DNA of 64,000 bases, taken from IMG/VR virus record IMGVR_UViG_3300031867_000007, positions 1-64,000 of that record. One strand, written 5' to 3'. The translations under genes and the position numbers were made by a program. This DNA is from a virus. Lineage: Duplodnaviria; Heunggongvirae; Uroviricota; Caudoviricetes. Under the pieces are notes generated by a model. It was given only the letters and a program-made list of their open reading frames with translations. It had not been told where the DNA came from and did no database searches. Of the stretch, positions 537-3,309 are shown in pieces (the stretch's first letter is position 1; each line of letters starts with the position of its first letter).

Positions 537-2819
537 ATGAATGTTATTAAACGTGATGGTCGCATTGTAGAATTTAATGCAACTAAAATTGAAAAAGCAA
601 TTCTTGCCGCATTTCAAGATGTAGATGGGACTATATCAGAATATGCAAGAGAAAAAGCAGCTAATATAGCTAGTTATATTGAAGGATATTATTTGGATGT
701 TGATGAAACACCAAGTATTGAAGAAATTCAAGATTTAGTAGAAAAAGGTTTAATGTCAACAAAACGTAAAGATGTAGCTAAATCATATATTCTTTATAGA
801 GAAGAAAGAAATAAAGTTAGAAATGCTAATAGTAAATTAATTCAATTAGTAAAAGAAAAAATTGAAGCTTCTAATGTGCAAAACCAAAATGCTAATATGG
901 ACGAACATTCTTTTGGTGGACGTATGGGAGAAGCCCGCAGTGAAGTAATGAAAGATTATGCTCTTAACTATATTGTTTCAGATATGGCTAGAGAAAATCA
1001 TTTAAATAATGAAATATATATTCATGATTTAGATAGTTATGCTGTTGGTATGCATAATTGTTTAACTGTGCCTTTTGATAAGTTATTAAAAGAAGGGTTT
1101 AATACTAGACAAACAGATGTAAGACCTGCTCGTTCAGTTAATACTGCATTTCAATTAGTAGCAGTGATATTTCAATTACAATCTTTACAACAGTTTGGCG
1201 GCGTTAGTGCTAGTCATTTAGATTGGACTATGGTACCATATGTTAGACTTTCTTTTAAAAAGCATTTTAAAGATGGAATGAGATACATCGAGCATAGAGA
1301 AGATGAAATCTCAAGCGATGATAATAGAAGTGTTGAAGATGATTTATACAAAGCATTTCCAGAGGTTTATAAATACGCTATGGATATGACTAAAAAAGAA
1401 TTAATGCAAGCAGTTCAAGGTATGTATCATAATTTGAATACATTACAATCGCGTTCAGGAAATCAATTACCTTTTACATCTATCAATTATGGTACTTGCA
1501 CATTACCAGAAGGTAGAATGGTAATAAAAGCATTGTTAGAAGGCTCTATTGAAGGAATTGGAAAAGTTAGAAAAACTCCTATATTCCCATGTGGAATATT
1601 TCAATGCATGAAAGGAATTAATCGTAAACCAGGAGAACCTAATTATGATTTATTTAAATTAGCACTTAAATCAACAGCACAAAGATTATATCCTAATTAT
1701 GTAAATGTAGATTGGTCAGTAAATGCGGGGTATGATAAAAACGACCCTAAGACTTATGTTTCAACAATGGGTTGCCGCACTTATAATGGTGCAGATATAA
1801 ATGCAGATGAAGGGGTTAATCCTCAAACTAAGGATGGTAGAGGTAATATATGTCCTGTTACTATTATTATGCCTACTCTTGCTATGAAAGCAAAAGAAAA
1901 AACTGAAAAAGAAGGAAACTATGTATCTATATCAGATGGTATAAGTTCTATGTCTGATAGTGCCTATGAAGAAGAAATTATTAAAAACTTTATGGAAATA
2001 TTAGATACTAAAATTCACGAGGCAAAAGATATGTTAATTGAACGATATAAATATATCATTAGTCAAAATCCTAACTCTGCAAAATTTATGTATGAGAATA
2101 GATTAATGTTGGGATATGATGGAAAAACAGTAGAAAGTGCTATGAAACATGGTACATTAGCCTTAGGACAAATAGGTTTGGCTGAGACTTTACAAATTTT
2201 AATTGGAACGGATCAAACAACAGAAAAAGGAATAAAATTGGCTAAACAAATTGAACAACTGTTTAAAGATAAATGTAATAAATTTAAAAAAGAATATAAA
2301 TTAAATATTGGAGTATATTTTACTCCGGCAGAAAATTTGTCATATACATCTATGAAAAAATTCAAAAAAGCCTATGGAATTATTCCTAATGTAAGTGATA
2401 AAAATTATTTTACTAATAGTATACATGTTCCAGTATGAAAAGAAATGAGTCCGTTTGAAAAAATTGATATTGAAAGTCAATTAACTGGATATAGTAATGC
2501 TGGATGTATTACTTATATAGAGTTAGATGGTGGAGTTAAAAATAATCTAGAAGCATTAGAAACAATAGTAAACTATGCTATGGATAAAGATATTCCATAT
2601 TTTGCAATTAATGTTCCAAATGATACTTGTTTAGATTGCGGTTACACTGATGAATTTAATGATAAATGTCCAATGTGCGGAAGCAAACATATACAACAAC
2701 TTAGACGTGTTACAGGATATTTAACGGGAGATTATAAAACTGCATTTAATAAAGGAAAACAACAAGAGACTGAACAAAGATACAAACATTCTAAAAAATT
2801 GGAGAATTGGAATGATTAG
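537..2819 (+). CDS. nrdD: Anaerobic ribonucleoside-triphosphate reductase NrdD (class III), read through TGA 2436-2438 as Trp
   Basis: Track ORFs 537-2438 and 2445-2819 are in the same frame and separated only by TGA. The C-terminus carries a CxxC...CxxC zinc ribbon and the glycyl-radical motif RVTGY. An AAGGAGG RBS precedes the ATG at 537. Confidence 0.9.
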
Positions 2820-3309
2820 GGTTGCAGGTATTAATGGTAATGATTTCGTCAATGGAGAAGGGGTAAGCGTTAGTTTATTCCTTCAAGGTTGTCCTTTTCA
2901 TTGTCAGGGATGTCATAATCCAGAAACTTGAGATCCTAACGGCGGAAAAATTTGAGATTGCAATGATTTAATAAATCATATTATTGAATTAATTTCCGCA
3001 AATGGAATACAAAGAAATTTAAGTATTTTAGGTGGAGAACCTTTTGATACTTATGATAAAAGAAATTTTATTCGTTTATTAATTAAGGTTGTAAAACAAA
3101 AATTTCCTGACATAAAAATTTGTATATGAACAGGATACACTTACAAAGAACTAATAGAAATAACTGATATAGGATATATATTACAAAATATAAATTACTT
3201 GATTGAAGGTCCTTTTAAAATTGAAGAACGTGACATTACATTAAAATGGCGCGGCAGCCGCAATCAAAATATAATAGATATGAAAGACAACTATAAAAGA
3301 ATACTATAA
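2812..3309 (+). CDS. nrdG: Anaerobic RNR activating radical-SAM enzyme NrdG
   Basis: CPFHCQGCHN radical-SAM cluster motif. Three in-frame TGA codons (2929, 2946, 3127) align with conserved Trp of E. coli NrdG (STWRVNSG, IWVWTGY, LIWRG). The ATG overlaps the nrdD stop. Confidence 0.9.

Follow-up and report, generated by a model that had tools for sequence, protein, structure and literature searches.

Layout and genetic code of the window

The DNA analyzed here, referred to as the window, is the 64,000-nucleotide (nt) stretch formed by positions 1 to 64,000 of the virus record IMGVR_UViG_3300031867_000007 (IMG/VR; Caudoviricetes). In most genes of the window TGA is a sense codon. A preliminary description of this DNA, centred on the genes for NrdD and NrdG at 537-3309, had proposed that the whole window is decoded with genetic code 4 (TGA = Trp) and that the recoding is genome-wide. 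The G+C content of the window is 28.5%, and a 142,554-bp ENA contig (L002, the twin; ERZ27256863 k141_233169) is 99.5% identical to it over 1989-13309. The genes are laid out as follows.

1..416, plus strand: C-terminal end of the DNA polymerase III alpha (PolIIIα) gene, with which the TGA-free replication module closes; 0 TGA; identified by alignment with the end of L002 PolIIIα
537..12718, plus strand: rightward module of nucleotide metabolism and accessory genes; 27 TGA, 15 TGG
12748..63072, minus strand: leftward structural, lysis and packaging module, 40 genes running from the terminase end to the tail end; 91 TGA, 59 TGG
63384..64000, plus strand: start of a divergent block of small, early-type genes; no TGA in three open reading frames (ORFs), read directly

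First, ORFs called with translation tables 11 and 4 were compared. The longest ORF under table 11 had 639 amino acids (aa), whereas ORFs of 2,799, 1,509 and 1,062 aa from stop to stop appeared when TGA was read as sense. Reading TAG or TAA as sense gave no comparable lengthening across the window, which showed that the gain was specific to TGA. The non-overlapping set of ORFs under table 11 contained 98 members with a median of 124 aa and covered 76.2% of the window, compared with 59 members, a median of 204 aa and 93.1% coverage under table 4. The claim that the window needs code 4 and not the standard code was thus borne out by this rise in coding density, in which 98 fragments became 59 genes, and by the TGG codons that relatives carry opposite its TGAs (see below). 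The pattern goes far beyond chance.

The 57 complete curated code-4 genes contained 118 in-frame TGA and 75 TGG codons, and at least one TGA was present in 38 of them; the window-wide TGA fraction of Trp codons was 0.61. The annotated genes end in TAA (41) or TAG (17), and TGA is never a terminator in the window. As the preliminary description had stated, the junctions between table-11 fragments are always TGA: all 118 of 118 interruptions were in-frame TGAs, and none was TAA or TAG. No fusions of unrelated genes under code 4 were seen in comparison with the gene calls of relatives. Annotation of the window therefore requires table 4, as table 11 breaks nearly all of the large genes, including those for the terminase, portal, tape measure, endolysin and NrdD/G. 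Arginine is hardly ever encoded by CGG, which occurs once in 19,782 codons in the coding frames of the whole window, against 473 occurrences of AGA.

The large genes of the leftward module, taken from the code-4 ORF table, include the following.

59202..60953, minus strand: TerL
57050..58624, minus strand: portal
38503..46878, minus strand: tape measure, 2,791 aa; 15 TGA, 8 TGG; one ORF only when TGA is sense
33952..38157, minus strand: large tail fibre-like protein, 1,401 aa from the first ATG (1,509 aa from stop to stop); 15 TGA, 3 TGG
21886..25047, minus strand: baseplate-like protein, 1,053 aa; 9 TGA, 7 TGG

The sizes given earlier for the fused products agreed with these for the tape measure (2,790 aa claimed) and the baseplate protein, but the fibre is 1,401 aa long and not 1,478 aa.

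NrdD and NrdG are interrupted by in-frame TGA codons

The two genes from which the recoding had been proposed lie at the start of the rightward module.

537..2819, plus strand: NrdD, anaerobic ribonucleotide reductase, 760 aa; one in-frame TGA (2436-2438, aa 634), 3 TGG
2812..3309, plus strand: NrdG activase, 165 aa; in-frame TGAs at 2929-2931, 2953-2955 and 3127-3129, 1 TGG

A strong AAGGAGG Shine-Dalgarno sequence precedes nrdD. The single in-frame TGA said to split NrdD was confirmed at 2436-2438, and solved NrdD structures (PDB 8p23, 9d3x and 1h78) align unbroken across it to the Zn-ribbon and the glycyl-radical RVTGY tail. Apart from the 99.5% twin, all six relatives compared (6/6) have TGG at this codon, including the cultured, standard-code Thomasclavelia phage TR-TP1. 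Homologues thus do not end at the TGA positions: the NrdD structures align through, and the ORFs are not truncated.

NrdG gave Pfam matches to Fer4_12 and Radical_SAM, and an identical NrdG protein was found on a 143,829-bp JGI/ENA contig. All three of its TGAs correspond to TGG in the standard-code relatives L130-L132 from pig gut. The placement of these TGAs on the Trp positions of E. coli NrdG held for the first and third, but the middle one falls on Phe. The same picture was obtained with 132 mutually distant NrdG representatives, in which column 40 was W in 118 of 132 and column 106 was W in 85, Y in 44 and G in 1, while column 48, an aromatic or hydrophobic position, was F in 48, Y in 17 and W in 14. 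Glycine thus occupied one of the 396 cells in the TGA columns.

The nrdD gene is uninterrupted in the window. An insert carrying an HNH/I-HmuI-like endonuclease is present at the position corresponding to about 1432 in the twin L002 (7725-8687), in the related locus L001 and in TR-TP1 (L003, 20952-21899), with an insertion point common to all. Around this point the identity between the window and the twin falls from 99.5% to 82-87%, as expected of a homing co-conversion tract.

TGA corresponds to tryptophan in related phages

The amino acid encoded by TGA was examined codon by codon. For the late genes, the window was compared with 80 IMG/VR loci around TerL homologues that are 58-94% identical, and the codons opposite its TGAs were TGG (977), TGA (201), TAT/TAC (125), TTT (15) and GGN (12). 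The codons opposite window TGGs, used as a control, showed the same picture (TGG 570, TAT 52, TGA 37). For the rightward module, further loci were used, including the standard-code pig-gut relatives and TR-TP1, and the 64 codons opposite its TGAs included TGG 42 times, TGA 7 times, TTT 7 times and no GGN. Pooled over both modules and about 90 related loci, the counts were TGG 1,019, TGA 208, Tyr/Phe codons 147 and GGN 12. TGA positions of the window recur as TGA in independent assemblies and as TGG in other relatives, and standard-code relatives have TGG at these positions. As far as sequence can establish it, TGA is therefore read as Trp (code 4) in these genes, and the expectation that alignments would place Trp rather than Gly at the TGA positions was met by about 1,020 TGG against 12 GGN among about 1,400 codons.

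The same counts rule out a reading of TGA as glycine (code 25) in an Absconditabacteria or Gracilibacteria host of the Candidate Phyla Radiation: code-25 phages exist, TGA is read through here and one endolysin relative lies in a metagenome-assembled genome (MAG) labelled Saccharibacteria, but GGN is almost missing opposite the window TGAs and Gly almost missing from the NrdG columns. It is equally improbable that the TGAs are real stops in a decayed or defective element, or reflect assembly errors, selenocysteine or occasional read-through, and the codon-level comparison excludes these readings also; table 11 does give 98 ORFs at a plausible-looking 76% density, and the dUTPase gene does look damaged, but not one of the 118 interruptions is TAA or TAG, independent assemblies have TGA at the same sites where relatives have TGG, the essential TerL, portal and tape measure would all be broken, and the TGAs are far too many for selenocysteine.

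TGA is depleted in the early and replication genes of close relatives

Next, the distribution of TGA among gene classes was analyzed. Within the window, the two modules use TGA alike (27 TGA/15 TGG rightward vs 91/59 leftward; Fisher p=0.72). For the early and replication genes, TGA counts were taken from relatives that are 86-99.5% identical near the window. The PolIIIα gene of the twin L002, which adjoins the start of the window, had 0 TGA and 18 TGG over 1,332 codons, and the gene for a GIY-YIG endonuclease beside it had 5 TGA and 0 TGG. In the replication module of an 86%-related locus, the genes for a ligase-like protein, a helicase, a primase and a 1,318-aa PolIIIα all had 0 TGA, and the exceptions were an HNH-type homing endonuclease (4 TGA/0 TGG) and one 606-aa gene (3 TGA).

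The divergent small-gene block past the window end showed the same tendency. In the 96%-identical locus L085 it had 2 TGA/20 TGG, compared with 21/18 in the adjoining late genes, and nine ORFs of this block in L100 had 0 TGA. Pooled over 23 TGA-recoded loci, the block contained 41 TGA/175 TGG, against 304/368 in late genes (p=1.6e-12). In a 127-kb TGA-recoded relative from IMG/VR, of which 48.6 kb (14.7-63.3 kb) was read directly, a sigma-70 gene and an array of transfer RNA (tRNA) genes lie within a stretch of about 26 kb whose long ORFs have 0 TGA and dozens of TGG. Relatives encode a sigma-70 family factor of their own (regions 1.2 to 4) within the TGA-free early region, beside the tRNA array (L089 17346..18170; L137 10001..10813).

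At a G+C content of 28%, mutation pressure favours TGA over TGG, and the retention of TGG in early and replication genes therefore points to selection. The simplest cause would be that these genes are translated while UGA still terminates. According to the preliminary description, early and late genes both use TGA, and recoding is genome-wide. The first statement is correct between the modules of the window, but the flanking blocks are TGA-poor in relatives; genome-wide recoding was not supported, as the upstream replication module and the downstream small-gene block are nearly TGA-free in close relatives.

Phage type, host and code state of relatives

The Pfam families YonG_N, YonD_N, YonB, YomW, YomV and YomU were found on ENA gene calls that are 96% identical to 48.7-63.4 kb of the window. 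These virion families, together with the 2,791-aa tape measure, point to an SPβ-like siphovirus. The tape measure has weak similarity to that of TR-TP1. The closest cultured TerL relatives are 25-45% identical, and all of them infect Bacillota (Enterococcus, Geobacillus, Alicyclobacillus, Bacillus and Thomasclavelia). A megablast search against GenBank phages gave, as the sole matches longer than about 110 nt, the NrdD genes of Thomasclavelia phages TR-TP1 and TR-TP2 (78% identity).

The lysis gene most relevant to the host is the endolysin.

28710..29651, minus strand: endolysin, N-acetylmuramoyl-L-alanine amidase with two peptidoglycan-binding repeats; 2 TGA, 2 TGG

Pfam scores were 40.9 bits for Amidase_2 and 81 bits for PG_binding_1, and relatives of this endolysin sit in MAGs named Clostridia, Clostridium or Bacillales. 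The code state of the relatives was also determined. The TerL clade (80 loci, at least 58% identity) contains about 25 TGA-recoded, about 25 TAG-recoded and about 30 standard-code members, and the TerL of the TGA-recoded L026 is 99.5% identical to that of L029/L030, which have 0-1 TGA. The standard-code relatives with the lowest G+C in this clade (L005-L084) are without TGA terminators.

From the peptidoglycan-binding endolysin, the TGA-poor blocks, the AAGGAGG sequence, the mixed-code clade and the Clostridia/Bacillales MAGs, we infer that the host is a peptidoglycan-bearing, standard-code Bacillota bacterium rather than a Mollicute. The earlier suggestion that the host is either a code-4 organism or fully suppressed found no support, given the peptidoglycan-binding endolysin and the sister phages in the standard code or with recoded TAG. 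A code-4 host such as a Mycoplasma- or Spiroplasma-like Mollicute, or some other bacterium with TGA=Trp, would make a switch unnecessary, since the phage would simply share its code. The low G+C of 28.5%, the equal TGA rates in both window modules and the lack of a detected suppressor tRNA would fit such a host, and the table-4 phages in GenBank are mostly Mycoplasma or Spiroplasma viruses (PMC11210395). We nevertheless regard a code-4 host as quite improbable. Mollicutes are wall-less, whereas the endolysin combines an amidase with peptidoglycan-binding repeats; in close relatives, TGG is retained and TGA avoided in the replication and early genes, against the AT pressure; sister phages with TerL up to 99.5% identical are in the standard code, and others recode TAG; and the cultured relatives grow on standard-code Bacillota.

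A proposed phage-directed switch of the genetic code

The explanation that we consider best, with a probability of about 0.8, is that the window is part of an SPβ-like siphovirus of about 140 kb from an animal or human gut, in which most middle and late genes are in code 4, the host is a standard-code Bacillota bacterium and the phage directs a switch of the code. Translation would begin with the early small genes and the replication genes, which in close relatives avoid TGA and which the unmodified host ribosome could therefore translate. Some phage-directed change would then make UGA a Trp codon, so that the genes for nucleotide metabolism, virion and lysis could be translated. The simplest agent would be a UGA-reading tRNA charged by the host tryptophanyl-tRNA synthetase (TrpRS), perhaps together with interference with release factor 2 (RF2); the step of a phage-supplied suppressor tRNA is assumed from the literature. 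The order of events agrees with the timing model of Borges et al., in which late and lysis proteins are held back by recoding until a phage-encoded suppressor system is active (bioRxiv 10.1101/2021.08.26.457843). A holin-like gene next to the endolysin agrees with this delayed-lysis model.

28231..28635, minus strand: holin-like membrane protein, 134 aa; all four Trp codons (4/4) are TGA

The product is a putative holin, as suggested by its hydrophobic sequence and its position beside the endolysin.

Several results weigh against a phage-directed switch. No tRNA or transfer-messenger RNA was detected in the window by ARAGORN, by Rfam at the gathering threshold or by a whole-window Rfam E-value scan, and ARAGORN with relaxed settings gave only noise. 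Among about 130 related loci scanned, there was no credible tRNA(UCA). No suppressor tRNA with this anticodon (Sup-TCA) was found in the 48.6 kb read of the 127-kb relative; about 70-75% of that genome was covered when parts inferred from synteny with the window and L001/L002 were included. Genes for release factor 1 (RF1), RF2 and TrpRS were not seen in the DNA examined. TGA is as frequent in early- and middle-type genes of the window (NrdG, ThyX-like, RuvC and glycosyltransferases) as in late genes; any code switch must precede the nucleotide-metabolism module, because recoding there is as heavy as in the late genes. The early region of another relative holds a few in-frame TGAs, so that the early block is more accurately called TGA-depleted than TGA-free. 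The evidence on early and replication genes comes from the relatives and not from the window's own contig, and the host assignment is indirect.

A different account would keep the standard-code host and have UGA decoded without a dedicated UCA-anticodon tRNA, by a mechanism not yet described. UGA could be read by the near-cognate host tRNA-Trp(CCA) once the phage had abolished RF2 activity or brought about a tRNA modification; another candidate would be an unconventional RNA from the ribozyme-rich tRNA array. Sup-TCA was not found in the sampled parts of several TGA-recoded relatives, and surveys detect it in only 15-35% of table-4 phages (bioRxiv 10.1101/2021.08.26.457843; PMC11210395). The tRNA array of the 127-kb relative also has unexplained structured stretches, motifs resembling hepatitis delta virus (HDV)/theta ribozymes and a partial match to RNase P. 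However, the sampled DNA covers about three quarters of each related genome, ARAGORN and Rfam can miss odd tRNAs, and no alternative agent is positively supported. We hold this account to be unlikely, and a phage-supplied suppressor tRNA would be the simpler agent.

The tRNA array of the 127-kb relative (L093 1..4017, corresponding to L100 about 4300-8300; IMGVR_UViG_3300031992_000032) contains 10 tRNAs, for Tyr, Leu, Leu, Lys, Val, Glu, Met, Met and Asn, and one called 'Pyl(cta)' by ARAGORN. The last was considered as an amber suppressor and rejected, since its sequence is better accommodated by a canonical tRNA-Arg(UCU) fold, in which the 5-bp anticodon stem is perfectly paired. The array also has two HDV/theta-ribozyme-like motifs (a weak Rfam match at 1832-1888, with a second copy of the motif near 3346), a partial RNase P class B-like match at 2557-2748 (45.6 bits, E=1.9e-10, below gathering), and a structured motif in three copies starting GGTGCTAC.T.AGGCTCGGTAG; about 800 nt of the array are unexplained.

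Comparison with known recoded phages

TGA-to-Trp recoding in gut phages of standard-code Firmicutes has already been published, and the window is a further example. The 'Agate' clade of Borges et al. is TGA-recoded, has genomes of about 127 kb and occurs in cattle, pig and tortoise; its replication genes are in the standard code, its structural and lysis genes are recoded and its group I intron endonuclease prefers TGA, and its relatives are standard, TGA-recoded or TAG-recoded at >80-90% average nucleotide identity (bioRxiv 10.1101/2021.08.26.457843). Like 'Agate', the window has TGA = Trp in structural and lysis genes, low G+C and an inferred Firmicute host. Its relatives likewise have replication genes in the standard code and recoded homing endonucleases (GIY-YIG, 5 TGA/0 TGG; HNH-like, 4/0), members in all three code states (standard, TGA-recoded and TAG-recoded) occur mixed together at high identity, and the suppressor tRNA is often undetectable. 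Unlike 'Agate', the window has a nucleotide-metabolism module that is recoded as heavily as its late genes, and its near-identical relatives are about 142-144 kb and not 127 kb. The window resembles the 'Agate' group in size, habitat, code pattern and recoded intron endonuclease, and probably belongs to it or is a neighbour of it.

Other systems share some of these properties. Phage phAss-1 ('Phassvirus'; PMC10607447) is a siphovirus of about 136 kb with a tape measure of about 3,000 aa; it encodes NrdG, dUTPase and numerous tRNAs, and about 28% of its ORFs contain a recoded stop codon. Its TerL is 43% identical to that of the window, which makes it a distant relative only, and phAss-1 and other TAG-to-Gln (code 15) gut siphoviruses differ in that TAG is recoded and clear Sup-CTA tRNAs are present. 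TR-TP1 has a syntenic replication and nucleotide module, with an endonuclease-split PolIIIα, NrdD with an intron endonuclease, NrdG, ThyX and a resolvase. TR-TP1 and SPβ-like Bacillota siphoviruses (Enterococcus EF1/H1, Geobacillus E3) resemble the window in NrdD (78% nt identity), TerL (25-45%) and Yon/Yom-type virion proteins, but TR-TP1, EF1/H1 and E3 use the standard code. Mycoplasma and Spiroplasma phages share TGA = Trp and low G+C; however, their hosts are wall-less and their TGA use is without partition by gene class, whereas the window has a peptidoglycan-binding endolysin and its relatives have TGA-free early and replication modules.

The window is a further well-resolved example of a phage genome written in two dialects. 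Because close relatives exist in all three code states, the group is well suited to studying the route and the pace of stop-codon reassignment. As no suppressor tRNA was found in the DNA examined, the wider interest lies in how UGA is decoded, a gap that the literature acknowledges for most table-4 phages.

Other genes of the structural module

Three tailspike-like paralogues in the leftward module have an N-terminal region in common.

26267..28147, minus strand: tailspike-like paralogue A, 626 aa; 0 TGA, 7 TGG; binomial P=0.0013 vs the 0.61 fraction
29983..32064, minus strand: third tailspike-like paralogue; shares its N-terminal region with 26267..28147 and 32094..33644
32094..33644, minus strand: tailspike-like paralogue C, 516 aa; 0 TGA, 5 TGG; binomial P=0.0085

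Because no TGA occurs among the Trp codons of paralogues A (0/7) and C (0/5), these two of the three may be recent imports from standard-code relatives. A 292-aa protein at 15696..16574 on the minus strand has a hydrophobic N-terminus rich in Gly, Trp and Phe (…GGNGWGGDGWWVILLFLFAFGGWGNGGFFGGNGG…) and a Cys-rich C-terminus; it had no family match, and three of its four Trp codons are written TGA.

The rightward module and the intron of the dUTPase gene

The rightward module was annotated from the code-4 ORF table, Pfam and the Pfam marks on the ENA gene calls of L002. It encodes NrdD and NrdG, a split dUTPase, a ThyX-like protein, a peptide deformylase, a Band7/flotillin protein, glycosyltransferases of the GT2 and GT1 types, a GIY-YIG protein and RuvC. 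The peptide deformylase, the Band7/flotillin-like protein and the two glycosyltransferases, which lie at 7524..11470 on the plus strand of this recoded module, are unusual as phage accessory genes. The dUTPase gene is split as follows.

4662..5006 (exon 1) and 6378..6575 (exon 2), plus strand: intron-split dUTPase; junction inferred from intact dUTPases of relatives and PDB dUTPases
5007..6377, plus strand: group I intron in the dUTPase gene; Rfam Intron_gpI at 6126-6342, 32.5 bits, E=1.5e-6, below the gathering score
5111..6151, plus strand: homing-endonuclease-like ORF inside the intron, 346 aa; 2 TGA, 2 TGG

In exon 2, the conserved motifs (VIDSDYRG..., ...GFGSTGV) are reached only with two +1 frame changes, at about 6399-6410 and about 6553-6557, and the frame-corrected exon aligns without gaps to PDB dUTPases. 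Compared with the intact genes of relatives, each shift corresponds to one extra base, and the independent assembly L002 (99.5%) has the two shifts as well. Programmed +1 frameshifting at 'hungry' CGG codons was considered, and plain 1-nt insertions in T runs are equally possible; the gene is either a young pseudogene or subject to programmed +1 frameshifting.

Conserved non-coding DNA at 6269-6376 was considered as an odd tRNA and rejected, as it is the core of the group I intron. This part of the core is 81-87% identical to unannotated DNA of unrelated Mammaliicoccus/Staphylococcus phages and a rodent-gut virus. In the relatives L129, L130 and L136, the dUTPase gene is intact and without the intron.

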